This document shows, in pieces, positions 45,233 to 61,959 of a stretch of 64,000 bases of DNA. The stretch comes from Dehalococcoidia bacterium (lineage in GTDB: Bacteria; Chloroflexota; Dehalococcoidia; UBA2979): positions 992,001-1,056,000 of the forward strand of contig OZ253555.1 in assembly GCA_965262725.1 (NCBI GenBank), given 5' to 3'. Under the pieces are notes generated by a model, which was given only the letters and a program-made list of their open reading frames with translations, searched no databases and had not been told where the DNA came from. The translations under genes were made by a program, and so were the position numbers. Each line of letters begins with the position of its first letter. The first letter of the stretch is position 1.

Positions 45233-45464
45233 CGTTCGGTCCCTCCGGATGCCCGTCGGACGACTGCCCCGGGGTCGTCCGAGAAGATCGGGGCGTCGGC
45301 GACGAACTCCACGGATGGTCCGCCACGACTGCTGTACGACGCTACACCTTCGCGTCGACGATCTTTAGGATGCCGCCGTGTGTGTCGATCGCCAAGGTCC
45401 TTGAGCCAGTCTGGGCAGCCGGCAGGCGGCTAGATGTCATCGGGCGCCTGGCCGGCCCGCGGCA

Positions 45465-45660
45465 TCAAGGAACTCCGGCATACTGCCGCCTCGCTTCTCC
45501 ACGCGCAGGGGCTCTCCCCCTGCGCGCTCATGGAGATGGTCGGGCATTCCGACGTGCGGATCACGCTCAACACGTACACCGACGTCTTCGACGAGAACCG
45601 TCGTCGCGCTGCGGAGCGGATGGACGCCGCCCTCGGCGCCGAACGTGAATGGGACCACCG
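45465..45660 (+). pseudogene. Tyrosine integrase C-terminal remnant
   Basis: ELRHTAASLL...VGHSDVRITLNTYTD (R, H and Y catalytic box); N-terminus missing. Confidence 0.8.
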
Positions 45661-45703
45661 CCGGGCGGTCGGAGCCGAGGAAGTCGATCCTAGGTTGAAA
45701 AAG

Positions 45704-45749
45704 TGGTCGGGGAGACAGGATTTGAACCTGCGACCTCCTGACCCCCAGA
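45704..45749 (-). tRNA. 3' half of tRNA-Pro(GGG); att-site duplicate, not a full tRNA
   Basis: Reverse complement tctggggg tcagg aggtc gcagg ttcaaat cctgt ctccccg a cca (anticodon loop, T arm, acceptor 3' strand, CCA); no D arm or 5' acceptor strand upstream. Confidence 0.88.
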
Positions 45750-46036
45750 TTGGCTTGCCACGCGCACGGACGCGCACCACCGCGCACACAGGTTTGATTC
45801 CGGCGCCGAGAACGTACGCATACGCACGGACGCGCAGGTCCGCGCACCGGCGAATGGGACCACGAAAGGGACCATGACGGTGTGATCGCGGGAGATCGCT
45901 TGGCGTGCGGCAGCGGCACCGATGCGGCCGTGTGCCCGCCGACAATGCGAGGCCCCAACGGGTCTTGAGTTCCGGTCTCGCCGCCCCGCTGCATCCGGAT
46001 GCGACCGGCAGTGGAAGGGCCACTTTTGCCGTATCC

Positions 46037-46696
46037 CTATTCGGACGCGCTTGACGGGATATCGAGGGTCAGCGGCGTGTCTCCGGAGGCATTCCGATCC
46101 GTGTGCCACACTGCGCGCCACCTCCCTCTGTCATCAACGGTATCTGGCCACAGGTCGACATAGGGACCTTCAACGTCGGTTCCGGGAAAGAACGGCTCAT
46201 CCTGAAGCAGCGTCCAGTGATACGAATGATCATTGCTTTCCTCACTTGGTGCCCTCTTCCACCCAGCCGCGGCGCCCGACGATTGAGAAGGTCTATCGCC
46301 GTAGTAGCTCTGCATTCTTCCCTGTGGGTCCTCAAGCCATACCTCAAGGCGATAGGCGTTCACTAATGCACCATTCTTCGGATTCGAGAATACGGTGCGA
46401 CATATCTCCATATCCCAATCCGGTAGGGGTCTTCTCTCGACGCGGACCTGCAGTCTCTGATGAGGAAAGAGGGTTCGTAGTTCCACGTAGGCGGCCACGA
46501 TTGAGAGTACCGTCGCAAGCACGCCCACTCCCGCGATCCACGCCGCTACTTGCGCGATTGCTTGGCCGTCTGTCGGCGGCCACGTGTGCCAAGCTGCCCA
46601 TGCCAGAAGCACGAATGCCACGATGACCAGGGCGAAGGCGGCTACTAGCAGACGGAATGACAGCCGACTGTTCACTTCGAGTTCCCCGACGTGCAT
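46037..46696 (-). CDS. Hypothetical protein with two N-terminal TM helices
   Basis: 219-aa ORF, two hydrophobic segments then a soluble domain. Confidence 0.6.
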   Translation of the reverse strand: MHVGELEVNSRLSFRLLVAAFALVIVAFVLLAWAAWHTWPPTDGQAIAQVAAWIAGVGVLATVLSIVAAYVELRTLFPHQRLQVRVERRPLPDWDMEICRTVFSNPKNGALVNAYRLEVWLEDPQGRMQSYYGDRPSQSSGAAAGWKRAPSEESNDHSYHWTLLQDEPFFPGTDVEGPYVDLWPDTVDDRGRWRAVWHTDRNASGDTPLTLDIPSSASE

Positions 46697-47469
46697 CTGC
46701 GCGCTCCGCAGGGGGTGGAGGTGCGACTGCGGGCAACTAGGCCACTAGCCAAGCCCGGTGACATCACGCGCATCGGGACCGCCCGGAAGCCGACATCCTG
46801 CCCGGGAGTCACGCCGATCGAGTACAGAAGCGTGGGGCGGACCCAGCGCAGCAACCCGCCGGACGCAGTATCCGCTGAGGTCATCGTTGGTGCCCTACGC
46901 CGACCCTCGGCGCCCCCCGTGCCAGCACGGCCGCGCCCGGGCCAGTGGCTGACGCTACAGCAGGCGAACGGCCGACTAGTCTACGATCTCGCCCGCCGCT
47001 CTGTGGCTGACCGGCGCCACTAGCAGCACCTTGCCAGCTCGGGAGGTCGGGCAAGTCATCTACGAACCAGAGGGCGAAGCCCGCCAGCCAGCGGCCCCGA
47101 TGTTCAGCGCCGAGGCGAGGAAACTCGCCTCAGCCGTGTTGGACGGATGGACGAACACCTTGATGAACACGCCCGCCTCGCTGTCGACCCTCCGACAGAC
47201 GATCCGATTCGTCCGACCCGGGGCTTGGCGCGAGCTGCGCCGATATGTGAACGAACGGGACATCCGGGAAGCAGTACGAGCGTTCTTGGTCCGCCAGGAA
47301 CGACTGAGCAGGGGCGACCTCGCTCCCGGGCGAGTACTGGGGCCCGTCCGGCGTACTTCCACCAGAGGTCTGGGCGAGCATGTGGCGCGCTCAGCACCGT
47401 GCGTACGTCCGGTTGTGGGGTGCCGACATTGGCGCCGCAGCGGCCGACAGTGGGACCATGCCACGTGCG

Positions 47470-48273
47470 ATGAATGCCCCACACGTCGACGCGTTGGTTT
47501 TCAGAATCGAGCATGGCCCTGCCGTGGCCTACAGCGACGATGCGCCGTCCATCGATCACGAGGAGCCAGGGTTCCGAGTAACACTCAAGGACGGAACCGT
47601 ACGCTTCGCCCTCAAGGAGCATCACGCGACTGAGGAAGAAGCGCTGGAGGCGGTGCTTCCGTACATCCGGGGCTGGGAACTGGACGCCAGCCTCCACGCG
47701 TGCCCGGGAGACTTCCGGTTGCGATTGGACCGGGCAGAAGTCATCGATCGACAACGGCCACAGTCGAAGCAAAGGACCCTCAACGTCTCCGCGTCCCGCA
47801 TCGCCGTACGCTGGACCACCGGGAACGTGAAGGTAACTCTTACGCGGCCTGCCTATCCCTCGCCACCAGCGGGCGTGACTCTCAGGGCGGACGACCCCGA
47901 CGTGGAGACCATGTACGACCGGTTGTCCCGGTACTACGCGGGGCACGAACCCCTGCCGAGCATGGTGTACTTCTGTCTCACCATGCTTGAGTACCGGTCG
48001 CCGGGGCGTGGACGGCAACAGAGACATGGTGCTGCCGTGCACCACCACATCAGCAAGCGGGTTCTCACGGAGATCGCGAAGCTCGCGTCCAACGGGGGAG
48101 GAGTTGGCTCGGCGCGCAAGGCGTCTGCCACTAGTACCGAGCTCTCGCAGCCGGAATCGCGTTTCCTCGAAGCGGCGGTCAAGATGATCATCCGCAGGGC
48201 TGCCGAGGTAGCCCAAGACCCCGACGCAGCCCTCCCGACGATCACGCTCGCGGATCTTCCTGAGCGCTCCTGA
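47470..48273 (+). CDS. Hypothetical protein (beta-rich N-terminus, helical C-terminus)
   Basis: Protein-like ORF MNAPHVDALVFRIEH...; no motif securely recognised. Confidence 0.65.
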   Translation: MNAPHVDALVFRIEHGPAVAYSDDAPSIDHEEPGFRVTLKDGTVRFALKEHHATEEEALEAVLPYIRGWELDASLHACPGDFRLRLDRAEVIDRQRPQSKQRTLNVSASRIAVRWTTGNVKVTLTRPAYPSPPAGVTLRADDPDVETMYDRLSRYYAGHEPLPSMVYFCLTMLEYRSPGRGRQQRHGAAVHHHISKRVLTEIAKLASNGGGVGSARKASATSTELSQPESRFLEAAVKMIIRRAAEVAQDPDAALPTITLADLPERS

Positions 48274-48449
48274 CTGGGGCCGGAGCACCACCGGCCCGGC
48301 TACTTCCACCACAACGCGAGGGTGAGAACGCGCCGCAGCCACAGCAGCAACAGCGCCCGCCTGCCGGCGGGTGCCGTGTTCCGTCCGGCCGCTGCACAAT
48401 CGTCAGCCACCCAGCAGGCGCCGTGGACGCCTGACTGGAGGAGCCCCTC

Positions 48450-49149
48450 TTGCTCAGCATTCGCAAGTTCGATGCAGTCGTCTTCGACCTGTGGGGCACG
48501 CTGGTCGACGATCCGGCGAGCGATCCGGGATACGTGCGGATGACGAAAGAGGTCGCGGCCCTGCTTGGCGTGGACCAACCAGACGGAATTCGCGAGTGCG
48601 TGGTCCGCCGCATGGTCCGCGCGCGTTGTAGGTGACCTCCCGTCGACGGAGGCTGCCCATGTCCACGTGTGCAGGAAGCTCGGGGTTGAGCCGGACCCGG
48701 ACAGCGTGCGTGCCTCCGTCGAGGTTCGGTACGCCTACATCCGCGGAGCCTTGGCGGCCGTCCGCCCCGGGATATCAGAGGCGCTGGCTGAGCTGGCGGA
48801 GGCTGGCTACCGGATTGGCCTCGTCAGCAATTGCAGTGTTGAAACCTCCCGGTTGTGGGCGTCCACGACCATTGCCGACCTTATCGGAACAGCCGTGCTC
48901 TCCTGCGATGTGGGCCTTGCCAAGCCCGATCCCCGCATCTACGCGCTCGCTACCCAACGGATGGATGTCGTACCCAAGCGCTGCCTCTTCGTCGCGGATG
49001 GTAGTGAAGACGAACTCAGTGGTGCGACGACGGTGGGCATGACGGCCGTGCTCATGCGTGCCCCGTACGACATCGAGGACGGTTCCCGCCAAGGTTGGGA
49101 CGGTCTCAGGATTTCGGCGATCCCGGATGTCCTGAGGATAGTGGGATGA
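48450..49149 (+). pseudogene. HAD-family hydrolase, frameshifted
   Basis: FDLWGTL (motif I) lies in one frame; LVSN, KPDPRIY and FVADGSEDEL in another; ACCA tandem duplication at 48574-48581. Confidence 0.8.
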
Positions 49150-49264
49150 GTTCGTCCCAGATGCCACTCATCGCTGGGGACGCAGGCGGACACACGGGAC
49201 TACCAGAGACCAGTTGCCTCTCCGTCGATGTGGGTTACCTCTGAGGACGGCGGGTGTGAACAGC

Positions 49265-49420
49265 GATCGGCGCCGCCGCCGCGCAAGCAAGCGCTCCGCG
49301 CGGCGCCGACGCTCGGTCCGTACGCGGACGTCATCCGAGAGTGGCTCGTCGCCGAGTACGGCGCGAGGGTCGCCGAGGCGACGGTCCGCGGCTGCGTCGC
49401 CCGGCTCCGGCGCGAACGCC
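49265..49420 (+). pseudogene. IS21 istA N-terminal remnant with internal deletion
   Basis: SAPPPRKQ..AAPTLGPYADVIREWLV/AEYGARVAEATVRGCVARLRRE aligns by eye with IstA at 55395. Confidence 0.75.
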
Positions 49421-50080
49421 AACGCCGGCGACTGCTCCAGCCCGTGATCGAGCGCGTCGATCTGGACATCGAGTCGGAGCTGATCGGCGGAATCGCCCCC
49501 ACGCCAAGGTGATGACGGCGCCTGTAGGGTTGGTGGAGACCGGGGAGGATCTGGCTCCAAGATGTCCAACTGCCGACGCTCGTTCATCCCGTGCCCGCGC
49601 ATTTGTCGGCATACGGACTTGTGTGGCAACTCGGGTGAGACGCGTGCCCGGGCGCACCGGGCCCCTGCTCGCGCGGGGTTTCGCGCCCATGGTCGGCCAA
49701 GAGGCGTGATGTCTGGACCCTTGGCAGAAGTGCGGCGGGGCCCATTCTCAATGGAAACACGGTCAGGCCCGATCGGGTCGCCTCGCACCTTCTTCGCCGA
49801 GTCTGGGTCGCTGGGACTACGGGTCGCGCGACCAAGGGCTTATGAGATCTTGAGAATCGGTGTTGGTTGGTCCCTGGACGTCCCGACGCTGGGGCCAACC
49901 GCCGGGTAGTTCAGCCGGGGCATCGTTTGGGGTGAGCCACATGACGAGCAAGCTGACGCTGTTCGACGACATTGAGCGCTCCGATGAGCGTCGCAAGCGC
50001 CTGACGCAGTCCAGTTTCCTCGGTGAGTTGCTGGACCTCCCGGAGGACTGGCCCGGCGAGCGGAGCCGCCCCACGTTCGA

Positions 50081-50270
50081 CTAACCCCTCTTCCGCCCCA
50101 GATTGAGCGCCAGCAGCCGCCCCAGCAGTTCCTCCTCCGACAGCGTGTGCGGTGCGGCGGACTCCGGCCAGCCGTAGGCGGCGAAGACGGCCGCGTCGAG
50201 GGCGGCGTGGAGGTGGGAGAGCCAAGCCGGGCGGGCGTTGTAGAGGTTGGTGAGCGTTGTGTATCTCGCC
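50081..50270 (-). pseudogene. C-terminal remnant of an MmeI-like (type IIL/IIG) RM enzyme
   Basis: TLTNLYNARPAWLSHLHAALDAAVFAAYGW...EELLGRLLALN. Confidence 0.75.
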
Positions 50271-50507
50271 TGCGGCATGCTGTTGACCATCGCCCGCGAT
50301 GGCCGCAGGAGACGCCGACCGTCCGATTCTTCGACTCCGCCCACGCCGATCCCGGTGCCGGCCCTAACGAGTACGTCGTCATCACGCAGTTCCGGAGGAG
50401 CGTGGCGGCGTGGTCTGGCACACGGAGGGCGCAGGCAAAGTCGCCGACGATGCTCTGGCTTGCGACGTAGCTGCGCCGCTCCCCGGCGCTGAGGCAACAC
50501 GATGCTA

Positions 50508-50546
50508 TGACCATTACGGTCACATGGGCAATCAATGTGCTATTAT
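50508..50546 (+). promoter_or_regulatory. Operator-like palindrome TGACC-N5-GGTCA plus extended -10 (TGcTATTAT); probable leaderless promoter
   Basis: Palindrome at 50508-50522; -10 at 50541-50546; ATG at 50553 with no SD sequence. Confidence 0.55.
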
Positions 50547-50552
50547 GGTCCC

Positions 50553-53500
50553 ATGCAAGAGTCTCCGCGGCGTCTAGCGCCTGAGGAAATCCGCGCGATC
50601 CGAGATCGTCTCGGACTCACGCAGGCGGAGGCTGGCGAACTGATCGGTGGAGGCCCGCGCGCGTTCACCAAATACGAGGCTGGGACGATCACTCCGACAG
50701 CCTCCGTGGATACGCTACTGCGCCTCTTGGACGCGAACCCCGCGACGATCCGGTTGCTGAGCTCTGGCAGAGCTCTTCCGCAAGCAGTCGTCATGCGTTT
50801 CCCGTTCGAAGCGGGAGCTTCAGATGTCGCCACACTGAACGAGCGGGAGTTGCCTGCTCTCCTGAGGCGCCTCCTCAGGGCAGAGGCAGTAGCTCACGGG
50901 GTCTCTCCCGCCGGAATCCACGTGGCCGAGAACATTCATGCCCCGGACGGGGGCGAGGACGGCCGCATTGACTGGCAGGGAGCGCCGGAGCGAACCAAGT
51001 TCCTTCCCGGCCGATTCGTCCAGTTCCAAGCCAAGGCCGGACCGATGTCACCGAGTGCCGCGGTTCAGGATGTCTTGGCGGCCAACGGCGACATAAGGGA
51101 CGCACTGCGGGCCGGACTCGCTCGGGGTGGGTACTACATCATGTTTTGCGGGCACCCCTACAACCGAAAGCAGATTCGGGAGCGAGAGGATCGGCTTCGG
51201 GCCACAGTGCGGAACGCCGGCGTGGCAATCGCCGCCGAGCAGGTCCGATTCTGGGATGCGGGCCAAATCGCTGAGTGGGCCACCTCCTACCCGTCGGTTG
51301 TTGTCTGGATCAAGGAGCGCACGTCTCCCGGCACCATCGGTCCTTTCCGGTCGTGGAGCCACTGGGCCACACGGAGCGAGCACGACCAGTCACTCTGGCT
51401 TGACGACGGCCGCTTGCCTGCTCTTAAGGGTCGACTACTTGAGTGCGTGACCAAGCAGCGGAGCGCCCTGCGCCTGGTGGGGCTTCCTGGTGTCGGCAAG
51501 TCGCGTCTCGTCCTCGAAGCACTCGGTCGAGAGATCGGGGCGGGTGACCACTCGCTCAGCGACTTTGTGCTCTACGCTGTCGAGTCCGAGGTCGGTTGGG
51601 AGACCGTCAGCAGGACCGTCCAGACGCTCGTTGACGACGGGCAGCGTGCGATCCTGGTCGTCGACGATTGCGAACCCCAGTCGCATGAGGTCCTCGTTCG
51701 AATGATCGTGCGAAAGGGCAGCCGCCTCTCTCTGGTCACGATCGATGATGAGATTCCCCGCGGAACGCTGGATCGGAGCACGTTCCTGGTGCCCGAGGCG
51801 CCGCCGGTCGTCACCGAGGGCATCATAGGTCAGCTCCTGCCTGGGCTGCCCTTCGAGGACGGGCAACGGCTGGCTCGCTTCTCTCGGGGCTTTCCGGGAC
51901 TCGCGATCCGCGTCGGGCACGTGTGGCTGGAATCTCGCCCCCTGGCCGATGCCGCCGACGAAGCTCTCGTCGGCGCCTTCGTGCTGGGTCGCAACAGGAG
52001 AGACAGCAAGTCTCTACTGAAGTCTGCGCAGCTGTTGGCCTCGTTCGGCCTAGTCGGAGTGAGAGATCGGCGGGAGCTGGAAGAACTCGCGGCGCTAGTG
52101 GGTAGCCTCAGCGCCGATGACTTCCATGCGGACTGCGCCACGCTCGCGGACCGCGGCGTCGCGAAGCGCCGGGGGGCAAGGGTCGCTCTGCAGTCGGGAC
52201 CGATCGCCTTCAAGTTGGCAGAGAGCCAGTGGCGAGAGTGGCCGCGGGACACGTGGGACTTGGTTCTCGCCGGCAGAATCGGTCCTGATCTGAAAAGGCA
52301 GGCTGCACGTCGACTTGCGGAACTCAACACCACGGATATCGCTGTGACGGTCGCCGAGCATGTCTGCAGGGTAGGCGGCCCTCTTGATGGGTTCCAGAAG
52401 GCGAGCGCGGAGGGCCACGGGGATGTCCTGTCGAGCCTCGCCGAGATCAGCCCGGAGATGGTCGGAGAGAGAATCGAGAGCGTCCTGGATGACGCCGCAG
52501 ATCTGGGCACGGTCGACGGCGACCTGCGCCGAGGCCTCGTACTGGCGCTCGAGAGGATCGCCTTTCACGCGAGGACCTTCGAGACCGGAGCGCTGCTCCT
52601 GCTACGTCTGGCAGTAGCTGAGACCGAGCCTTGGAGCAACAACGCGACGGGTCGATTCACCGAGCTCTTCCCCGTCCTGGAGGGCGGCACCGAGGCCGGC
52701 GGCAGCGCCAGGATCGCAGTTCTGGATGGATTGGCAGCCAGCAGCGACCCCACTCAACGTGCCATCGTCGTCGCGGCTCTCGCTGCCGGTTCAGAGACCG
52801 TCACCTTCCAGCGCACGCTCGGAGCCGAGTCCCACGGGACCCGGCCTGCCTTGGAGCCATGGTTTCCGCCCACGCGGAGGGATGCAACGGACTACATACG
52901 AGATTGTGTGACGCGTCTCGGGCATCTCGCTCAGTCGGATGACCCGGCGGGCGAGGCTGCGAGAGCTGCGCTCAGCAAAGGCCTCGGGGCATGGGTGCAG
53001 GAGGGCTTGCTCGATGTCGTGGAGAGTGTCGTTGGGCGAGTAGCTCCCGAGGTGGGCTATTGGCCTGCGGCAGCCGCGAGCCTGGGAGACTTGCTCACGG
53101 ATGGCATGGACGGCCTCGACCCGGACGCGCTCAACCGTATCGAGGCGCTGATCGGAACTCTCCAGCCGAGGACCATGGAAGCGCTCATCCGTGCTCGAAT
53201 CTCCACGGTTGCCCGCGACCCTCGGGAGGGCGAGGACATCGAGGCACAACACCAGCGCGCAGCTGGAGACGTTCGGGATCTGGCTAAAGAACTGATCGAC
53301 CAGCCGGCTCTGCTTGAGTCATACCTTCCTCGACTGAGCCGCGGTCACCACCAGATGGCGCGTGTATTCGGAGAGGCTGTCGCCGATCTCAGTCGCGGAT
53401 CCCCCGACTGGCTCCAGCGGTTCGAGGTGGCGGTCGCAGGGGTACCTGCGGGCGAGCGCAGCTTCGATCTCCTGTCAGGGTACGTCGGTTGGCTGCGCAC

Positions 53501-54554
53501 ACACCGTCCGGCCGTAGCCGACGCGTTCCAGCGGCGAGTGGCCGAGTCACGGGAGCTGGCGATCGCTCTTCCGGAGTTGTGCCTCTCTCCGGGGATCGCC
53601 ACGTCCGACATCCCGGTGGTGATCGCTGCCCTGGAATCCGGGCTGTTCCCGCCTTCGGGGCTGCGCTGTTGGGGCTTCGGCGGCGTGCTGCAGAAGCTGC
53701 CACCGGCAGCTGTCGCGCCCCTGTTTGACGCACTCCTCGACCAAGATGCCGAGGGGCTCGCCGTGGCCGCGGAGCTCATGGGGATGTACGCGTTCGGTCA
53801 GGTCGACGCACTCGACGCGCTGCGGCCTCAGGTCGTGAGGCTCGCCCGGAACGTCGGCGGCTGGCGCCGAGAGCCAAGTGAGCGGTCCGACTCTTACCAT
53901 CTCGAGCAGGTCATGGAGTGGATTCTCGCCAAGGGGAGGGCGGATCCGGATGCCACCGCCTCGGCCCTCGCCCTCGCGCGGGGACTGGTCACAGGGACGT
54001 TCGATGGCGCCCAGAGGGTTCGGCCCCTGATTCGAACGCTGTTGTCGGGATTCCCTGAGGTCGTTTGGCCACTCATCGGTCAGGCGATCGTGTCCGATCC
54101 GCAGGCAGCGCGGCGCGCGGAGCTGTGCCTCGGGGACTCGCCATCGTTCCGTCGAGGGCAACCCCCCATCCTCGATCTACCCGAGGACAGCCTGTTCGCG
54201 TGGTGTCACGCCCACCCGGACGCCGCTCCGGCGTGCGCGGCCAGGATCATCCCGGTACTGGACCCATTGGAACCCGTCCCCGACGAGCGCTCGTTACATC
54301 CGGTCATGGCGCGGTTGCTCGACGAGTTCGGAGACCGGGATGACGTGTTACGAGCAATTGAACTCAACGTCTACAACTTCGGTTGGTGGGGGTCGGTGAC
54401 AACCTATTTCCAGCAGTACGATCGTCCACTAGACACGTTGACGGAGCACCCGCGGCCTGAGGTGCGACGGTGGGCGAGATCAATGCTCAGGCAGCTCCAT
54501 GCCTCCATCGAGCAGGCCGGTGAGGAGGAAGAGGAGGCGCGATGGGACGTCTAG
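50553..54554 (+). CDS. MqsA/XRE-type HTH + PD-(D/E)xK-like nuclease + STAND-like NTPase + helical repeats; putative defence protein
   Basis: IRDRLGLTQAEAGELIGGGPRAFTKYE; DGGEDG...FQAK; Walker A GLPGVGKS (51480); Walker B ILVVDD (51651). Confidence 0.8.
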   Translation: MQESPRRLAPEEIRAIRDRLGLTQAEAGELIGGGPRAFTKYEAGTITPTASVDTLLRLLDANPATIRLLSSGRALPQAVVMRFPFEAGASDVATLNERELPALLRRLLRAEAVAHGVSPAGIHVAENIHAPDGGEDGRIDWQGAPERTKFLPGRFVQFQAKAGPMSPSAAVQDVLAANGDIRDALRAGLARGGYYIMFCGHPYNRKQIREREDRLRATVRNAGVAIAAEQVRFWDAGQIAEWATSYPSVVVWIKERTSPGTIGPFRSWSHWATRSEHDQSLWLDDGRLPALKGRLLECVTKQRSALRLVGLPGVGKSRLVLEALGREIGAGDHSLSDFVLYAVESEVGWETVSRTVQTLVDDGQRAILVVDDCEPQSHEVLVRMIVRKGSRLSLVTIDDEIPRGTLDRSTFLVPEAPPVVTEGIIGQLLPGLPFEDGQRLARFSRGFPGLAIRVGHVWLESRPLADAADEALVGAFVLGRNRRDSKSLLKSAQLLASFGLVGVRDRRELEELAALVGSLSADDFHADCATLADRGVAKRRGARVALQSGPIAFKLAESQWREWPRDTWDLVLAGRIGPDLKRQAARRLAELNTTDIAVTVAEHVCRVGGPLDGFQKASAEGHGDVLSSLAEISPEMVGERIESVLDDAADLGTVDGDLRRGLVLALERIAFHARTFETGALLLLRLAVAETEPWSNNATGRFTELFPVLEGGTEAGGSARIAVLDGLAASSDPTQRAIVVAALAAGSETVTFQRTLGAESHGTRPALEPWFPPTRRDATDYIRDCVTRLGHLAQSDDPAGEAARAALSKGLGAWVQEGLLDVVESVVGRVAPEVGYWPAAAASLGDLLTDGMDGLDPDALNRIEALIGTLQPRTMEALIRARISTVARDPREGEDIEAQHQRAAGDVRDLAKELIDQPALLESYLPRLSRGHHQMARVFGEAVADLSRGSPDWLQRFEVAVAGVPAGERSFDLLSGYVGWLRTHRPAVADAFQRRVAESRELAIALPELCLSPGIATSDIPVVIAALESGLFPPSGLRCWGFGGVLQKLPPAAVAPLFDALLDQDAEGLAVAAELMGMYAFGQVDALDALRPQVVRLARNVGGWRREPSERSDSYHLEQVMEWILAKGRADPDATASALALARGLVTGTFDGAQRVRPLIRTLLSGFPEVVWPLIGQAIVSDPQAARRAELCLGDSPSFRRGQPPILDLPEDSLFAWCHAHPDAAPACAARIIPVLDPLEPVPDERSLHPVMARLLDEFGDRDDVLRAIELNVYNFGWWGSVTTYFQQYDRPLDTLTEHPRPEVRRWARSMLRQLHASIEQAGEEEEEARWDV

Positions 54555-54606: not shown

Positions 54607-55200
54607 TCACTGCTTCGGGGCGTGGAGTCCGCGCGTGAGGGCGTCGACGCAGGCGAGCAGCGACCCCCCGTCGAGTTGTGCGAGCGGGCGCCCGTAGCGC
54701 TGCTCGACCCACCTATGGGTACGCGCCTCGTCCGATCCCGCGCTCGCAACGACCCCGAGCACGCGGCGCCGGAGCTCGTCCGGCCGCGCGCTGGCCCCGA
54801 ACGGGGCCGCATCGGTGGGCTCACTCCCGAGCCCGTTCCCGAAGCGCGCCCCGAAGTGCCGGAGCGCGCGCTTGAGCGCGTCGGTGGCGGCGGCCTTGAT
54901 GGCCACCGCGTGCGCCTCGGCGGTGTGGTCCGAGGCGACGGCGGTGCCGATGTCGCTGTGTGGCAGGCAGCCCCGGGCGGTGACCCGGACGGGGTCGCCG
55001 TGTAGATGGCGGCCGATAAGTCCGCCGCTCCCCCCGCTTCCGGCGTGAGGCGGCGGGTGACCTCCCCGACGAGCTCGGCGCCCCAGCGGTCGGCCCCGAA
55101 TGTCGCGTTCGCCTCCTCTATGGCCCGCCACCCCTCGAGGTAGCGGAGCACCTCGCCGTCCCCGGTGGTGCGCTCGCCGCTTCACGACCGCCTGCGTCTC
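54607..55200 (-). pseudogene. Rad52/Rad22 (Sak-like) single-strand annealing protein, frameshifted and 5'-truncated
   Basis: YLEGWRAIEEANATFG..W in one frame; VRVT...AIKAAATDALKRALRHFG..FGNGL in another; shift near 54990. Confidence 0.78.
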
Positions 55201-55394
55201 GCCGCGCTCGAGCGTCGCGGTCACGCGAGCGTGGCGTTCACGCTCGACACCTACGCGCACGTCCTGCCTGGGAATGATGCTCTGAATTGGCCCCACCTGG
55301 AGCCGTTTTGATCCTTTGAATTGGCCCCACCCCCGACCCATCCAGGACCTACGCTCGGGTGACTGCATGACTCCCGGAGCGAGGGAAGAGGAGT

Positions 55395-57029
55395 GTGTCG
55401 AGAGTGGAGCTGTTCGAGTCTATCCGACGGATGGCGAGGGAGGAGGAGCTGTCGATCCATGAGCTGGGACGCCGGCATGGCGTGCACCGGCGCACGGTGC
55501 GGCAGGCTCTTGGGTCGGCGATACCCCCGGAACGCAAGCAGGCGACCCGCGTGGCCCCGAAGCTCGGGCCGTACGTCTCGGTCATCCGGGGCTGGCTCGT
55601 GGACGACCTCAGCGCGCCGCGCAAGCAGCGGCACACGGCCCGGCGCATCTGGGAGCGCCTCGTCGACGAACACGGGGCGACGGTGGCCGAGCCCACGGTC
55701 CGCGCCTGCGTCGCGCGCCTGCGTCGCGAGATCCAGGGCGGGCGCGCGGTTGTGACGATCCCGCAGGTCCATCCTCCCGGCGAGGAGGCGGAGGTCGACT
55801 TCGGCACGGTGACGGTGTGGCTGGAGGGCGTCGAGACCCGGCTGGCGATGTTCGTGATGCGGCTCTCGCATTCGGGGCGGGCGGCGCACGTCTGCTTCGT
55901 CGGCGAGGGCCAGGAGTCTCTGCTCGAGGGGCACGTGGTCGCCTTCGAGCGGCTCGGCGGAGTGCCGCGGCGCATCCGCTACGACAATCTGACGGCGGCC
56001 GTCACCACCGTGCTGCAGGGACGCGAGCGCCTGCAGACCGAGCGCTTCATCGCGCTCCGCTCGCATTACGGCTTCGACAGCTTCTTCTGTGAGCCCGGCA
56101 TCGAGGGCGCGCACGAGAAGGGCGGTGTGGAGGGCGAGGTCGGCCGCTTCCGCCGGCGGCACTTCGTGCCGGTCCCGAAGGTGGCGACCCTCGGCGAGCT
56201 GAACGAACGAGTGCGGGAGGCGGACCGCACCGACGACGCCCGGCACATCGAGAGCCGCCTCGCCACCGTCGGCGAGATGGGAGAGAACGAGAAGGCCTCG
56301 CTGCGTCCGCTTCCGGCGGAGCGCTTCGACCCGTCAATCCCGCTGCGCGCGAAGGTCGACCGCAAGGCGCGCATCGCCGTGCGTAGCTCCCGCTACTCGG
56401 TCCCGGCGGCCTATGCAGGCCGGAAGCTGGACGTGCGGCTGTCCGGGAACAGCCTGACCGTGTGGGCCGAGGGGCGTGAAGTCGCCCACCACGAGCGCAG
56501 CGCCCGCACCGGAGCAGAGGTCCTGCTGCTCGACCACTATCTGGAGGTGCTCGCGCGCAAGCCCGGGGCGGTCCCGGGCTCGGTGGCGCTCCAGCAGGCG
56601 CGTGCGAAGGGACACGTCACAGCCGAGCATCAGCGCTTCTGGGACCGCGCCCGCCGCAAGCTCGGCGACCGCGCGGGCACGCAGGCGTACATCGAGGTCC
56701 TGCTCCTGCATCGCCATCTTCCCTTCACGGCGGTGCACGCCGCGCTCGGGACGGTCAACAGGATCCAGTCGGTGAACCCCGAACTGGTCGCCATCGAGGC
56801 GCGCCGTCTCGCCGACCGCAGGCCACCAGACGCCGCCGTCGAGAGACCGCACCTGGAGCGCTACGACCGACCTGCCCCGCTCCTCGATGGCTACGATGCG
56901 CTGCTCTCGGGTGATTCCCGATGGCCCGGCACGTCGCCGGGCGGGCGCTCCCGCGCTCCGCGGTCTGCCGAGAACGCGTCGCACACCACCACAACCGCCG
57001 TCACCGCTGCGGTGTCGACGGCACGCTGA
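55395..57029 (+). CDS. istA: IS21 transposase
   Basis: HTH, EAEVDFG, YDN, EKGGVE (DDE triad). Confidence 0.93.
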   Translation: MSRVELFESIRRMAREEELSIHELGRRHGVHRRTVRQALGSAIPPERKQATRVAPKLGPYVSVIRGWLVDDLSAPRKQRHTARRIWERLVDEHGATVAEPTVRACVARLRREIQGGRAVVTIPQVHPPGEEAEVDFGTVTVWLEGVETRLAMFVMRLSHSGRAAHVCFVGEGQESLLEGHVVAFERLGGVPRRIRYDNLTAAVTTVLQGRERLQTERFIALRSHYGFDSFFCEPGIEGAHEKGGVEGEVGRFRRRHFVPVPKVATLGELNERVREADRTDDARHIESRLATVGEMGENEKASLRPLPAERFDPSIPLRAKVDRKARIAVRSSRYSVPAAYAGRKLDVRLSGNSLTVWAEGREVAHHERSARTGAEVLLLDHYLEVLARKPGAVPGSVALQQARAKGHVTAEHQRFWDRARRKLGDRAGTQAYIEVLLLHRHLPFTAVHAALGTVNRIQSVNPELVAIEARRLADRRPPDAAVERPHLERYDRPAPLLDGYDALLSGDSRWPGTSPGGRSRAPRSAENASHTTTTAVTAAVSTAR

Positions 57030-57045
57030 CCACAGGAGGCACCCG

Positions 57046-57828
57046 ATGACAGCACCCCTCACCGACCAGGCCGCGGAGCTGACGATCGAGGCGATCTGCC
57101 GTGAGCTCCGTCTCCCCACCGTCAGGAAGCAGGCGCTCCCGCTCGCCGAAGCCGCGGTCCGAGACCGGATCACCCATCTGGGCTATCTCGCCGAAGTGCT
57201 GGGAGCCGAACGCGATGACCGTGAGGAGCGGCGCCGTCAGCGCCGTATCGTCGAGGCGCGGTTCCCGCGTTTCAAGTACCTCGCCGACTTCGACCTCGAG
57301 GCGGCGCCGACAGTCGACGCGCCGGCGCTCGCCACGCTGGAGCGCTGCGACTGGGTCGAAAGGGGCGAGCCCGTCGTCCTGCTCGGTGACAGCGGCACCG
57401 GGAAGTCACACCTGCTCATCGGCCTCGGCATGGCCGCCTGCCACCTGGGGCTGCGCGTGCGGTACATGACCACGGCCGCCCTGGTGAATGAACTGGCCGA
57501 AGCGTCGGATGATCGCGCGCTCTCACGCCTCGTCGCCCGCTACGGCCGCCTCGACCTGCTCTGCCTGGATGAGTTCGGGTACGTCCACCTCGACCCGCGC
57601 GGTGCCGAAATGCTGTTCCAGATCCTGACCGAGCGCGAGGAACGGGCATCGGTCGCCGTCGCCTCCAACTCCCCGTTCTCCGAGTGGGGCCGCATCTTCA
57701 CCGACCCTCGTCTCGCCGCGGCCGTCGTTGACCGCCTCACCTACCGTGCCCATATCATCGAGACCGGCACCGGGTCCTACCGGCTCCGGGCCTCGACCTC
57801 CCCGAGAGGAGGTGCCCCAACGACCTGA
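57046..57828 (+). CDS. istB: IS21 helper ATPase
   Basis: GDSGTGKSH, LLCLDEFGY, AVVDRL. Confidence 0.94.
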   Translation: MTAPLTDQAAELTIEAICRELRLPTVRKQALPLAEAAVRDRITHLGYLAEVLGAERDDREERRRQRRIVEARFPRFKYLADFDLEAAPTVDAPALATLERCDWVERGEPVVLLGDSGTGKSHLLIGLGMAACHLGLRVRYMTTAALVNELAEASDDRALSRLVARYGRLDLLCLDEFGYVHLDPRGAEMLFQILTEREERASVAVASNSPFSEWGRIFTDPRLAAAVVDRLTYRAHIIETGTGSYRLRASTSPRGGAPTT

Positions 57829-58208
57829 TCCCGGTCCCCGGGGGTGGGGCCAGATCAGAGGATCAAAGTGGGGCCAGATGTAAGCATCATTCCCACCTGC
57901 CCGATCAGCAGCGCGAGGCTGCGGATCTGATGGACTCGGTGTTGCCCCAGGTGGGTCGGCTCGCGCAGTAGTGACTCGTCGTCCGGGTGACGAACTTGGC
58001 TTGCGACGAGTGGTCATGGCGGGCTGGGTGTACAAGACGCGTGGCTCCGGAGAGATCGGCTACTGAGACTATGGATGGCCCTGAGACGAGATAGGGAACG
58101 CCACTACTGATTCACAGCGAGGATTCCTGCCCGACGCTCTGCTGCGCCACGATAAGCTCCGCAACGTGACCACCGGGGCAGCAGCGGCGCGCGACGAGGG
58201 GACTCACC

Positions 58209-59012
58209 ATGGCGATCTGGGAGCTGATCGTGGATGCGCTCAAGGGCGCGTACGACGAGGGCCGGACCTGGCTCGGAAGCGGTGAGATAGCGCACGCCGT
58301 GGAGGCGATCGCGCCCGGCACAAACCTCGGGAGCGTTCGCCACAACGTGAGATTTCATTGCATCAACGACCCGAGCAAGGAGCACTCCCCTGGCCTGCGC
58401 TACCTGAAGACCCCGCTCCTCATCACCGATGACCCGACGATGCACGGGAAGCGCTACCGACTGCTCACGGAAGCGGAGCGACGCACGTTCCTGGACCAGC
58501 CACGGGATGACCTCGAGCAGTACAGCTATACCCAGGTCCTGGAGTGGCTTCGAGATCCCTCAGCGGGCCTGGCGCCGGTGGGAGGCGGCGGCAACGCCGA
58601 TCCTGAGCCCGGTGACGAGCTCGGGGGCGTAGCCCTACTCGAGCTGCACCTGCAGGACTATCTCTTCCGCAACTGGAAGCAACACTTCCCTCACCTGGAG
58701 CTCTTCGAGGGGGCGCGGGGGCGAGAATTCATCACGTCCGACCCCGGCGTGGGTACGATCGACTTCCTCTGCACGGACCGCGAGGGAAACTTCGTCGTCA
58801 TCGAGACGAAGCGCGATCAGCCGGACCGGCGGGCGATCGGACAGATCCTCGGATACATGGGCTGGGTCCAGACTAGGCTGGCGAAGGGACGGCGGGTGAG
58901 CGGCATGTTGGTAGCGGGCTCGGGTTCGGACTCCCTGCGAATGGCGATCGCCGTCGTACCCAACCTCGAGCTCTGGGTCTACGAGCTGTCGTTCTCGCTT
59001 CATCGTGAATAG
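58209..59012 (+). CDS. Endonuclease with C-terminal NucS/DUF91-like PD-(D/E)xK domain
   Basis: LELHLQDYL..NW, IDFLC, VVIETK, GQILGYMGW. Confidence 0.8.
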   Translation: MAIWELIVDALKGAYDEGRTWLGSGEIAHAVEAIAPGTNLGSVRHNVRFHCINDPSKEHSPGLRYLKTPLLITDDPTMHGKRYRLLTEAERRTFLDQPRDDLEQYSYTQVLEWLRDPSAGLAPVGGGGNADPEPGDELGGVALLELHLQDYLFRNWKQHFPHLELFEGARGREFITSDPGVGTIDFLCTDREGNFVVIETKRDQPDRRAIGQILGYMGWVQTRLAKGRRVSGMLVAGSGSDSLRMAIAVVPNLELWVYELSFSLHRE

Positions 59013-61023: not shown

Positions 61024-61959
61024 ATGGCCAAGAACACTAAGAAGACTTGTTTCGTAATCGCACCCATTGACGAGCCAGAATCAGAGGTCCGGGTGCGGTC
61101 TGACCAAATCCTGAACCACGTGATCAGACCAGCAGTGGAGCAGTGTGGCTACGGCAAGCCTGTCCGCGCCGACGAGATCGACGAGCCTGGGAATATCACA
61201 AGCCAAGTCATTCAGCACGTCACCGAGGACGATCTAGTCGTAGCAGACTTGACGGGCCGCAACCCAAATGTGTTTTACGAACTTGCAATTCGACATGCGA
61301 TTAGAAGGCCATTCGTCCAGATCGCTGAGGCGGGTGAGCGAATCCCATTCGATGTCTATGGGCAGAGGACGATCTTTATTGACCATACGAATCTGGACAA
61401 CGTTGCTGAGGCGATAGCGTCGATCGTAGAACAGATCAAGTCCTTCGAGGAGAAGGATGCACAAGTCGAAACACCGATTTCGATGTCATTGGATCTTCAG
61501 AATCTTCGGCAAAGTGGCAATCCAGAACAAAGGTCACTAGCTGATATTCTATCGGAGTTATCCAGCATTAGGAATGCCCTCTCTGGAATGGACATACAAA
61601 GGCTCGAAGCGCATCTTGCGATAATTCAGGAAGAATTAAACATGTCGCGGAGGAGAAGCCACCGCCACCCAGGTCCGCCCCCGTCAAGCATTATCGAAAT
61701 GGTTCGCTCTCGCCACGGGACAGGCATCAACATCTTGCCCATCGCTCTAAGCTTCGTGCGCGATGAGGCTCCGTGGCTATACGAAGTGGGCATGGAGGCA
61801 TACCGACATCACGCGTCGGGCAATACTCGCCGGGCTCAAGAGCTAACGATGAGGTTGCAGGAACTAATGGAGATGACGGGTGAGCTCTCGCACCTGAGTA
61901 GGCAGAGCCACGATGCGTTGAATATCTTGCGAATCGTTGTCCATGAGGTAGTCACGTGA
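61024..61959 (+). CDS. Nucleoside 2-deoxyribosyltransferase/TIR-like domain protein
   Basis: CFVIAPI, RADEI..PG.I, VADLTGRNPNVFYELAIRH. Confidence 0.75.
   Translation: MAKNTKKTCFVIAPIDEPESEVRVRSDQILNHVIRPAVEQCGYGKPVRADEIDEPGNITSQVIQHVTEDDLVVADLTGRNPNVFYELAIRHAIRRPFVQIAEAGERIPFDVYGQRTIFIDHTNLDNVAEAIASIVEQIKSFEEKDAQVETPISMSLDLQNLRQSGNPEQRSLADILSELSSIRNALSGMDIQRLEAHLAIIQEELNMSRRRSHRHPGPPPSSIIEMVRSRHGTGINILPIALSFVRDEAPWLYEVGMEAYRHHASGNTRRAQELTMRLQELMEMTGELSHLSRQSHDALNILRIVVHEVVT

Follow-up and report, generated by a model that had tools for sequence, protein, structure and literature searches.

The locus and its gene

The window analysed here is a 64,000-nt stretch of DNA from a Dehalococcoidia bacterium. 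Towards its end lies a large gene, designated HTH-Avs8, preceded by two predicted operator sites and a promoter-like sequence (Table 1). The open frame extends over 50535–54554 and translation from the ATG at 50553 yields 1333 aa, confirming the intact ORF of this length described in a first-pass annotation made from the sequence alone. This ATG is the conserved start in homologs, with the GGGPRAF motif of the DNA-binding domain following 31 codons after it.

Table 1. Features of the HTH-Avs8 locus (window coordinates).
Feature	Position	Strand	Remarks
Palindrome of the first-pass annotation	50508–50522		TGACCATTACGGTCA, 15 bp, contains ACC-N5-GGT
Distal operator site (predicted)	50510–50520		ACCATTACGGT; ACC-N5-GGT, palindrome core; overlaps -35-like hexamer
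Proximal operator site (predicted, degenerate)	50539–50549		GCTATTATGGT; right half perfect, left half 3 of 5
Sigma-70-like promoter match	50519–50546	+	GTCACA, 16 nt, TATTAT, TG before -10; consensus match only
HTH-Avs8 gene	50553–54554	+	1333 aa plus stop; PADLOC PD-Lambda-4_A, E 1.7e-88
MqsA-type HTH domain	50565–50762	+	aa 5–70, then low-confidence linker aa 71–81
Mrr-like PD-(D/E)xK nuclease domain	50805–51332	+	aa ~85–260; from motif conservation and fold matches
P-loop STAND NTPase core	51414–51797	+	aa ~288–415; Walker A 310–317, Walker B 367–374
Helical and winged-helix arm of STAND module	51798–52229	+	aa ~416–559; from AF2 secondary structure, boundaries approximate
C-terminal alpha-solenoid sensor	52230–54551	+	aa ~560–1333; all helical, collinear with PD-Lambda-4_A sensor

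The nuclease-like and Walker A/B motifs reported earlier are present as stated. In the numbering of the 1333-aa protein, the helix-turn-helix (HTH) motif GGGPRAFTKYE occupies residues 32–42, PDGGEDGRIDW and QFQAK begin at 131 and 157, and Walker A (GLPGVGKS) and Walker B (ILVVDDCE) at 310 and 367. D132, D136 and K161 are invariant among 54 sequences, and E135 and Q159 are retained in 90% or more of them; these five are the presumed catalytic residues of the nuclease. Fold matches of this domain (Can2, R.BspD6I, FokI, AF1548 and MspJI) have middling scores (Z 7.7–8.4), yet all are of one class, restriction-endonuclease-like. The NTPase core has a weak Pfam AAA_22 match; its Walker A residues G316, G321 and K322 are invariant across homologs and D377, the second aspartate of Walker B, reaches at least 90% conservation (P0001 numbering, in which residues 85–1327 of the 1333-aa protein become 91–1333). 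From about residue 560 onwards, some 770 aa, the AF2 model (mean pLDDT 83.4) is helical throughout, in keeping with the long helical part proposed before, and in fold comparisons this region matches HEAT/ARM solenoids, SAMD9, Avs3 and Avs4, the last three being among the top matches.

Upstream of the gene, a large degraded restriction-modification (RM) gene was considered as a candidate and dropped, because tblastn of the full MmeI-type protein of locus L028 against the window gave no match and similarity to the proteins of L065 and L038 is limited to some 30 aa at their C-terminal end.

Affiliation with the Avs8 family

The PADLOC profile PD-Lambda-4_A (PDLC03991) matches residues 85–1327 over profile positions 4–1272 of 1283, and the core had no match to any other defence family in PADLOC. 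BLASTP aligned residues 91–1325 (P0001 numbering), sensor included, collinearly with a Vibrio plasmid protein (L080:2492-6316) at E 3e-58, with 23% identity over 1280 columns and 6% gaps. This protein is a bona fide PD-Lambda-4_A member, scoring 969 bits on the profile, and its nuclease motif aligns with the one found here. The first-pass annotation recognised no named system at this locus; since everything after the HTH constitutes a full-length match to PD-Lambda-4_A (Avs8A), the system is not an unnamed one, and a described counterpart exists for the entire protein core. Its broader reading, that of an Avs-like STAND receptor which bears a nuclease N-terminally and has captured an MqsA-type HTH, is supported. 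Judged by sequence, the gene product belongs to the Avs8 (PD-lambda-4 A) family as a distant member that stands alone and carries an additional MqsA-type HTH at its N-terminus. The core is thus already known as Avs8A, and the new part is the HTH together with its operator.

Avs8B was not found beside the gene (no PADLOC match among the flanking ORFs), and no neighbour family is common to more than 7 of 76 loci. Its absence has no bearing on membership of the A protein, because Avs8B is dispensable in E. coli, where one protein, Avs8A, suffices for defence (10.1101/2025.07.02.662641). The terms HTH, MqsA, Xre, DNA-binding and repressor go unmentioned in the main texts of two Avs8 preprints, the supplementary tables of which may list HTH-bearing members, and we found no description of such fusion logic for Avs/NLR-like receptors in the literature searched.

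The N-terminal DNA-binding domain

Sequence and structure agree on the MqsA-like HTH that was proposed initially. It is matched by Pfam MqsA_antitoxin (E 6e-12), by NCBIfam TIGR03830 (63.6 bits against a cut-off of 61.8) and by MqsA in the PDB (E 1e-11, aligning with residues 68–127 of the E. coli protein), and its fold superimposes on that of MqsA with Z 12.2 and an rmsd of 1.6 Å over 66 residues. The protein begins only 4–5 residues before the HTH, and the matches cover positions 69–125 of 131 in the Pfam profile and 60–123 of 127 in TIGR03830; the zinc-binding, MqsR-binding domain of MqsA is absent. Where MqsA has Asn97 and Arg101 the protein has Arg and Lys, the former position varying among homologs (R, S, N, V or D), and no covariation of this residue with the operator sequence was evident among the homologs compared. 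A complex prediction for two copies of the HTH (aa 1–78) scored 0.02, which speaks neither for nor against a dimer.

The HTH-bearing proteins form one clade in the gene tree. The fusion is no isolated capture event; it belongs to a large conserved clade of proteins of about 1340 aa, in which the HTH motif does not vary across at least 10 phyla, although overall protein identity is only 38–57%.

Predicted operators in the promoter region

The palindrome upstream of the gene is present as first described. Taken alone it could be a chance occurrence, since 5-nt arms around a 5-nt spacer are found at 150 positions of the window, and it was comparison with homologs that showed it to be real. A perfect ACC-N5-GGT site occurs in the same short upstream zone (80 nt) of 56 of 71 HTH-bearing loci, from at least 10 phyla and fetched in part through an HTH peptide pattern, and within 150 nt upstream of none of eight HTH-less homologs, all plasmid-borne. 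By comparison, perfect sites were present in 266 of 13,690 random 90-nt zones (1.9%), and site density is 12.7 per kb against 0.26 per kb. The operator consensus is (G)ACCATWATGGT(C), and ACC-N5-GGT has the geometry of ACCT-N3-AGGT, bearing out the likeness to the MqsA operator noted at the outset. Sites are paired in 37 of the 71 loci and stand 29 nt apart in 27 of these pairs; in the window, likewise, the proximal site begins 29 nt after the distal one. It ends 3 nt before the ATG, while the proximal sites of homologs end 4–8 nt before theirs.

The extended -10 reported in the first-pass annotation (TGcTATTAT, 50538–50546, ending 6 nt before the ATG) is indeed there, although it is at the same time the degenerate second operator site. 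It is the sole sigma-70-like match in 50300–50700, against 0.0 ± 0.2 in shuffled sequences, and the predicted operator sites overlap this only promoter-like match of the region searched. A promoter-like -10 falls inside the distal site in 16 of the 56 loci with a perfect site. The mRNA had been taken to be leaderless; the layout in many homologs points rather to a short leader. The comparative data support the view that the palindrome behaves as a conserved operator co-occurring with the HTH, and the position of the sites before the gene suggests that the gene switches itself off.

Fifteen of the 71 HTH-bearing loci have no perfect site. Three of these, which have no site of any kind, keep the HTH in genes placed directly downstream of mazE-mazF (L017 and L057) or of a mazE-like ORF only (L018), and for this reason the HTH may do more than autorepress. 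It might mainly tether or pre-dimerise the resting receptor on DNA, or help the nuclease to engage DNA, with the sites serving as secondary or parking positions and not as operators. That the substrate of the effector is DNA fits such a role, as does conservation of the HTH residues that is stricter than a simple autoregulator might need. However, Avs8A without an HTH is a competent DNase and defence protein (10.1101/2025.07.02.662641), the sites coincide precisely with the gene's own promoter and start region and accompany the gene in different phyla, and consensus-like sites elsewhere than at the paralogs are scarce in the genome once four copies of one repeat are set aside. We therefore regard a primarily DNA-tethering function as improbable, and retain autorepression as the preferred reading.

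Phylogenetic distribution and paralogs

Seventy-five loci of the clade were fetched, and at least 10 phyla are represented in the tree, which conflicts with host phylum. The distribution is patchy and resembles that of horizontally transferred genes, the loci lying in islands with IS elements, RM genes and toxin–antitoxin genes. No match was found in 40 related genomes, and a scan of viral contigs found no relatives. One survey recorded PD-Lambda-4 only in Proteobacteria (10.1101/2024.10.26.620412); if members of the clade are Avs8-type defence nucleases, the family extends well beyond that phylum.

Three paralogs occur in the 3.7-Mb genome, at 89% and 47% identity, and are well suited to studies of how sensors diversify in specificity. 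The other two also match the PD-Lambda-4_A profile and all three carry a site. Between paralogs A and B, DNA-level similarity is confined to the gene and about 18 nt upstream, and the distal site is kept in both: paralog B has ACCATTGTGGT at this place, between diverged flanks, and a proximal site identical to that of the window. Such retention bears on whether the HTH and palindromes could be a non-functional relic, left when an ancestral mqsA promoter and gene were fused to the receptor by deletion. In favour of a relic, the HTH shares its ancestry with an antitoxin domain while no toxin is left nearby: as was first observed, the flanking ORFs contain no toxin family, MqsR included; nor is a toxin conserved among 76 loci, and no partner gene is linked to them. 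A relic would hardly keep its sites while the flanks diverge, or an invariant HTH motif in such dissimilar proteins from so many phyla, and of the readings considered we give this one the least credence.

Relatives in the clade carry public names such as 'MqsA family antitoxin', 'YiaG regulator', 'XRE-family regulator' and 'hypothetical protein', or none. Names of this kind, 'transcriptional regulator' among them, together with the combination of HTH, STAND module and helical repeats in one protein, might suggest a ligand-sensing transcription factor of the MalT/AfsR kind that has no part in defence and whose nuclease-like domain is inactive. This is very unlikely given the complete or near invariance of the D, E/D and QxK residues presumed to be catalytic, the match of the core over its full length to a protein with a proven role in defence, and the patchy, island-associated distribution of the genes described above. 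The annotation should accordingly be corrected, the clade relatives appearing to be Avs8-type defence nucleases and not antitoxins or regulators.

A model for regulation and defence

We consider it probable, from sequence comparison, that the gene encodes an autorepressed abortive-infection nuclease of the Avs8 family. By analogy with E. coli Avs8A, which binds lambda gpE and other HK97 capsid proteins and is an ATP-dependent DNase whose nuclease residues are required for defence (10.1101/2025.07.02.662641; 10.64898/2026.01.04.697583), the C-terminal solenoid would bind a phage structural protein, most likely a monomeric HK97-fold major capsid protein. ATP-dependent oligomerisation would then activate the Mrr-like PD-(D/E)xK nuclease, which would degrade dsDNA and so abort the infection. 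Before infection, to go by conservation, an HTH dimer would occupy the two ACC-N5-GGT operators about 29 nt apart, which overlap both the gene's own core promoter and the start of its translation, and this autorepression would hold a self-toxic nuclease at a low level. The locus bears on how self-toxic bacterial immune receptors are kept quiet: in this case the controlling element seems to be part of the receptor itself.

The architecture and regulation may be as proposed while the sensor is directed at some phage protein that is not the HK97 major capsid protein. With no more than 23% identity to the characterised type of Avs8A, the receptor may have a different trigger; the three paralogs suggest diversified specificities, and Avs families differ in target (10.64898/2026.01.04.697583). 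On the other hand, the whole sensor is collinear with PD-Lambda-4_A with few gaps, and E. coli Avs8A recognises by their fold capsid proteins that are less than 15% identical to each other (10.1101/2025.07.02.662641). A different phage target is a serious minority possibility, and a capsid trigger is kept in the preferred model.

More speculatively, and in our view with a somewhat smaller chance of being right, the protein could form a sensor–effector–regulator circuit on its own: capsid binding and ATP-driven N-terminal tetramerisation would pull the HTH off its operators, the nuclease would fire and the gene would be derepressed. If so, infection would give positive feedback without a separate regulator.

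Relationship to known systems

Small HTH repressors encoded beside defence systems, such as CapH/CapP of CBASS, BrxR-type proteins and the C proteins of RM systems, hold a toxic module at a low level through palindromic operators in its promoter. CapH and C-protein domains are among the weaker fold matches of the HTH described here; in contrast to these repressors, the domain lies inside the sensor–effector polypeptide and is not a separate gene. STAND transcription factors of the MalT and AfsR type likewise unite an HTH, a STAND NTPase and helical repeats in one protein. The present protein differs from them in the class and position of its HTH, in the conserved nuclease effector between HTH and NTPase, and in a core that is homologous to Avs8A.

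With MqsA (E. coli YgiT) the protein shares a homologous HTH, at 42–44% identity and an rmsd of 1.2–1.6 Å, which is here fused to a 1250-aa immune receptor and has neither the zinc-binding, toxin-binding domain nor an adjoining MqsR. The operator of MqsA, ACCT-N3-AGGT, is present in two copies in the E. coli promoter PmqsRA, and in Pseudomonas putida the site overlaps the ribosome-binding site (PMC5422877). Some sites of the clade are exactly ACCTTTAAGGT, two sites stand in the promoter and the proximal one is located at the ribosome-binding site as in P. putida, whereas AT takes the place of T in the inner half-site consensus.

The closest relationship is to Avs8. In both, an N-terminal nuclease of the Mrr-like PD-(D/E)xK type is followed by a P-loop STAND NTPase and then by a long helical sensor, and the proteins are collinear over about 1240 residues. 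The protein is distinguished from Avs8A by an identity of only about 23%, by the lack of an Avs8B-like neighbour, by the extra 80-residue MqsA-type HTH and linker at its N-terminus and by a conserved operator pair upstream of its gene; and, unlike the Avs8 of E. coli and other Gammaproteobacteria, the HTH-bearing clade is found in many phyla outside Proteobacteria.

Domain architecture of the protein

The frame of the HTH-Avs8 gene is open on the + strand from 50535 to 54554 and encodes 1333 aa if read from the ATG at 50553, a start that agrees with the homologs, in which a conserved start lies 31 codons ahead of the GGGPRAF motif. The intact 1333-aa ORF with an MqsA-like HTH, a nuclease motif and Walker A and B motifs, as described in the first-pass annotation, was located in full at 50553-54554. 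Residues are numbered on the 1333-aa protein unless P0001, a longer reading of the same ORF (+6), is named.

Pfam and NCBIfam each match the MqsA-type HTH only (PF15731, E 6e-12; TIGR03830, 63.6 bits, cut-off 61.8), and the zinc-binding half of these families is missing from the protein. The HTH aligns to E. coli MqsA residues 68-127 (E 1e-11). The first-pass annotation did not recognise the system as a named one; PADLOC, however, matches residues 85-1327 to PD-Lambda-4_A over its full length (E 1.7e-88, profile positions 4-1272 of 1283), and no other defence family was matched in the PADLOC search of the protein core. A Vibrio anguillarum plasmid protein that scores 969 bits on this profile is collinear with residues 91-1325 in P0001 numbering (23% identity, 6% gaps, E 3e-58). 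By sequence comparison, we identify the protein beyond the HTH as Avs8A.

Avs8 is the newer name of PD-lambda-4. Two reports on the E. coli system describe that Avs8A is sufficient for defence and its nuclease residues are needed, while Avs8B is dispensable (10.1101/2025.07.02.662641; 10.64898/2026.01.04.697583). No mention of an HTH-bearing Avs8 was found in the searchable literature, supplementary tables aside, which may already list one.

An AF2 model of residues 1-300 (54 sequences, mean pLDDT 83.6) comprises the HTH (5-70), a disordered linker (71-81) and an alpha/beta domain. Overlaid on the C-terminal domain of MqsA, the modelled HTH gives Z 12.2 and an rmsd of 1.6 A over 66 residues at 42% identity, and modelled residues 85-248 match the PD-(D/E)xK nuclease domains of Can2, R.BspD6I, FokI, AF1548 and MspJI at Z 7.7-8.4, scores that are middling yet point to one single fold class. 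The model of residues 281-1333 (pLDDT 83.4) has a P-loop alpha/beta core, then a helical and winged-helix arm, then an all-helical solenoid to the C-terminus; Foldseek matched it to HEAT/ARM solenoids, with SAMD9, Avs3 and Avs4 ranking within the first 11 despite low TM scores.

Features of the HTH-Avs8 gene, its upstream region, its paralogs and its downstream neighbours (window nucleotides unless aa or C1, the contig of the own genome, is given)
Feature	Position	Strand	Remarks
HTH motif	aa 32-42		GGGPRAFTKYE
Nuclease motif	aa 131		PDGGEDGRIDW
Nuclease motif	aa 157		QFQAK
Walker A	aa 310		GLPGVGKS
Walker B	aa 367		ILVVDDCE
Palindrome	50508-50522		TGACCATTACGGTCA
Distal site	50510-50520		ACCATTACGGT; ACC-N5-GGT, contained in the palindrome
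Extended -10	50538-50546		TGcTATTAT
Proximal site	50539-50549		GCTATTATGGT; degenerate, exactly 29 nt downstream of the distal site
Rad52/Rad22-type single-strand annealing ORF	54607-55368	-	E 5.5e-9; in convergent orientation to the Avs8-like gene
IS21-family element	55266-57901		IstA-like ORF 55395-57029, IstB 56887-57828
NucS_C-like nuclease ORF	58209-59012	+	PADLOC candidate families PDC-S02 (E 9e-17), PDC-S11
TIR-effector-like ORF	61024-61959	+	PADLOC E 2.5e-8
Paralog B (locus L077)	C1:720113-724129	+	HTH-Avs8, 89% identity
Paralog C (locus L078)	C1:348966-353000	-	HTH-Avs8, 47% identity

Candidate operator sites upstream of HTH-bearing genes

The palindrome alone is not significant, 5-nt arms with a 5-nt spacer being present at 150 positions in the window. 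Its proposed co-occurrence with the HTH is borne out across homologs: at least one perfect ACC-N5-GGT site lies in a zone 165-85 nt ahead of the HTH motif in 56 of 71 HTH-bearing loci, against none within 150 nt upstream of the eight HTH-less homologs. Random 90-nt zones from the same loci contained a perfect site in 266 of 13,690 cases (1.9%), and site density was 12.7 per kb in the zone versus 0.26 per kb elsewhere; with one mismatch allowed the count rises to 64 of 71, but with high background. The consensus of 72 sites is (G)ACCATWATGGT(C). Pairs occur in 37 of the 71 loci, 27 of them spaced by 29 nt, and several proximal sites among homologs are exactly ACCTTTAAGGT.

DNA binding by MqsA needs Asn97 and Arg101 (PMC5422877). 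These align to Arg36 and Lys40 of the window protein; Lys40 is invariant in the homolog alignment and Arg36 at least 90% conserved, and no operator change is evident alongside the variants S, N, V and D at position 36.

Elsewhere in the window there is an operator-like site, ACCATGACGGT, at 45871-45881; it lies 4.6 kb ahead of the gene, and no HTH gene adjoins it. Four perfect ACCATWATGGT sites in the own genome (C1:1922876, 1953537, 1957081 and 2026265) all fall within copies of one repeat, and are probably a single chance site multiplied by it.

Putative promoter and leader

The extended -10 of the first-pass annotation is part of a sigma-70-like match (GTCACA, 16 nt, TATTAT; shuffles 0.0 +/- 0.2), the sole one between 50300 and 50700, but the same stretch is also the degenerate proximal site. 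The -35-like hexamer and the distal site overlap; the -10 lies within the proximal site and ends 6 nt ahead of the ATG, a placement that fits a leaderless mRNA. Sixteen of 56 loci have a promoter-like match with its -10 inside the distal site; none of 39 others has a strict promoter match touching a site. The 16 perfect proximal sites end 4-8 nt before the ATG, with AGGT in 8, and 43 of 47 distal sites have TGGT; because of this placement and pattern, many homologs seem to have a short leader with the ribosome-binding region under the proximal site.

Homologs and phylogeny

Among the best 120 of 912 homologs, PF15731 is present in 118, with lengths near 1340 aa and identities of 47-56% apart from a single protein at 89%. 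The HTH alone as a query among long proteins returned 200 proteins, and PF15731 is present in all 120 of the matches listed (835-1398 aa, mainly about 1340). Public names in the clade are 'MqsA family antitoxin', 'YiaG', 'XRE-family regulator' and 'hypothetical'. The 75 loci taken from named genomes give no measure of prevalence, because the HTH itself contains one of the two patterns by which they were retrieved.

A FastTree tree was computed with the HTH columns removed, omitting loci that contain N or have a longest ORF below 1150 aa; in it, one branch (SH-like support 100, with a long-branch warning) parts 67 HTH-bearing rows from eight HTH-less plasmid homologs. The tree intermixes at least ten phyla, in conflict with organismal phylogeny; on these sequences, the simplest reading would be a fusion that arose once, with wide horizontal transfer after. 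A 1373-aa protein annotated as 'helix-turn-helix transcriptional regulator', at 1-1050 of L081 (Rhizobium leguminosarum plasmid pPR4) and immediately 5' of an HTH-less Avs8-like gene, may be another HTH-fused large receptor.

Paralogs and genomic neighbourhood

The own genome (3.67 Mb, one contig, 70.6% GC) has three HTH-Avs8 copies, the window gene (paralog A) and paralogs B and C, and these are its only MqsA-domain matches; none of 40 related genomes searched had an HTH-Avs8 match. Paralog B retains ACCATTGTGGT and an identical proximal site, and paralog C carries ACCATCATGGT at 23-33 nt ahead of its ATG. DNA similarity of A and B is confined to the gene, through its stop, and about 18 nt ahead of the ATG, and the distal site is kept in both although the flanks beyond are dissimilar. 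Their 143 amino acid differences are densest at 101-400, 801-900 and 1201-1300. A 2636-bp copy of the IS21 element (99.85% identity, inverted) lies just downstream of B, and A and B are therefore flanked by the same IS.

No neighbour family is common to more than 7 of 76 loci; those common to several include phage-type integrases (as at L020). Among the ORFs flanking the window gene we found no PD-Lambda-4_B, nor, in keeping with the first-pass annotation, a toxin family. In two homologous loci mazE-mazF (L017:3144-3905; L057:3582-3917), and in a third a mazE-like ORF (L018:3169-3708), immediately precede HTH-Avs8 in the same orientation, and all three lack ACC-N5-GGT sites.

Downstream in the window, the Rad52-like ORF may be a phage remnant and the NucS_C-like ORF a further defence gene, and the TIR-like ORF, where GC falls to about 53-56% against about 70% in the genome, looks recently acquired. 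Just upstream of the gene, about 30 aa at 50165-50257 (-) resemble the C-terminus of restriction-modification enzymes of the MmeI type (E 3e-4, 0.008); MmeI-type genes, full-length or split, also adjoin HTH-Avs8 at L028:8215-11247, L038:9373-12042 and L065:8342-11248. By GC3 no coding frame stands out clearly in the region around 45400-50500, where family matches are few and a HAD hydrolase (48565-49149) is the sole recognisable gene; the region may be decayed sequence.

Discussion

From the architecture, Avs8 membership, operator conservation and HTH co-occurrence observed here, we infer a mechanism in which an Avs8-family abortive-infection nuclease receptor would repress its own promoter via the fused MqsA-type HTH; DNA binding, repression, the trigger and any feedback are all parts of this proposal. 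The site-less loci behind mazEF, which still carry the HTH, count against a pure autoregulator.

The first-pass reading of the gene as an Avs-like receptor with a captured MqsA-type HTH and an operator is supported as to the architecture and the conservation of the operator; the core, which the first-pass annotation did not recognise as a named system, is one. The MqsA operator, ACCT-N3-AGGT, has the same frame as the ACC-N5-GGT sites; as PMC5422877 describes, E. coli PmqsRA holds two copies of it, and in P. putida the MqsA site overlaps the RBS. The protein core is a known system, and the HTH-operator module is what is new in that system.
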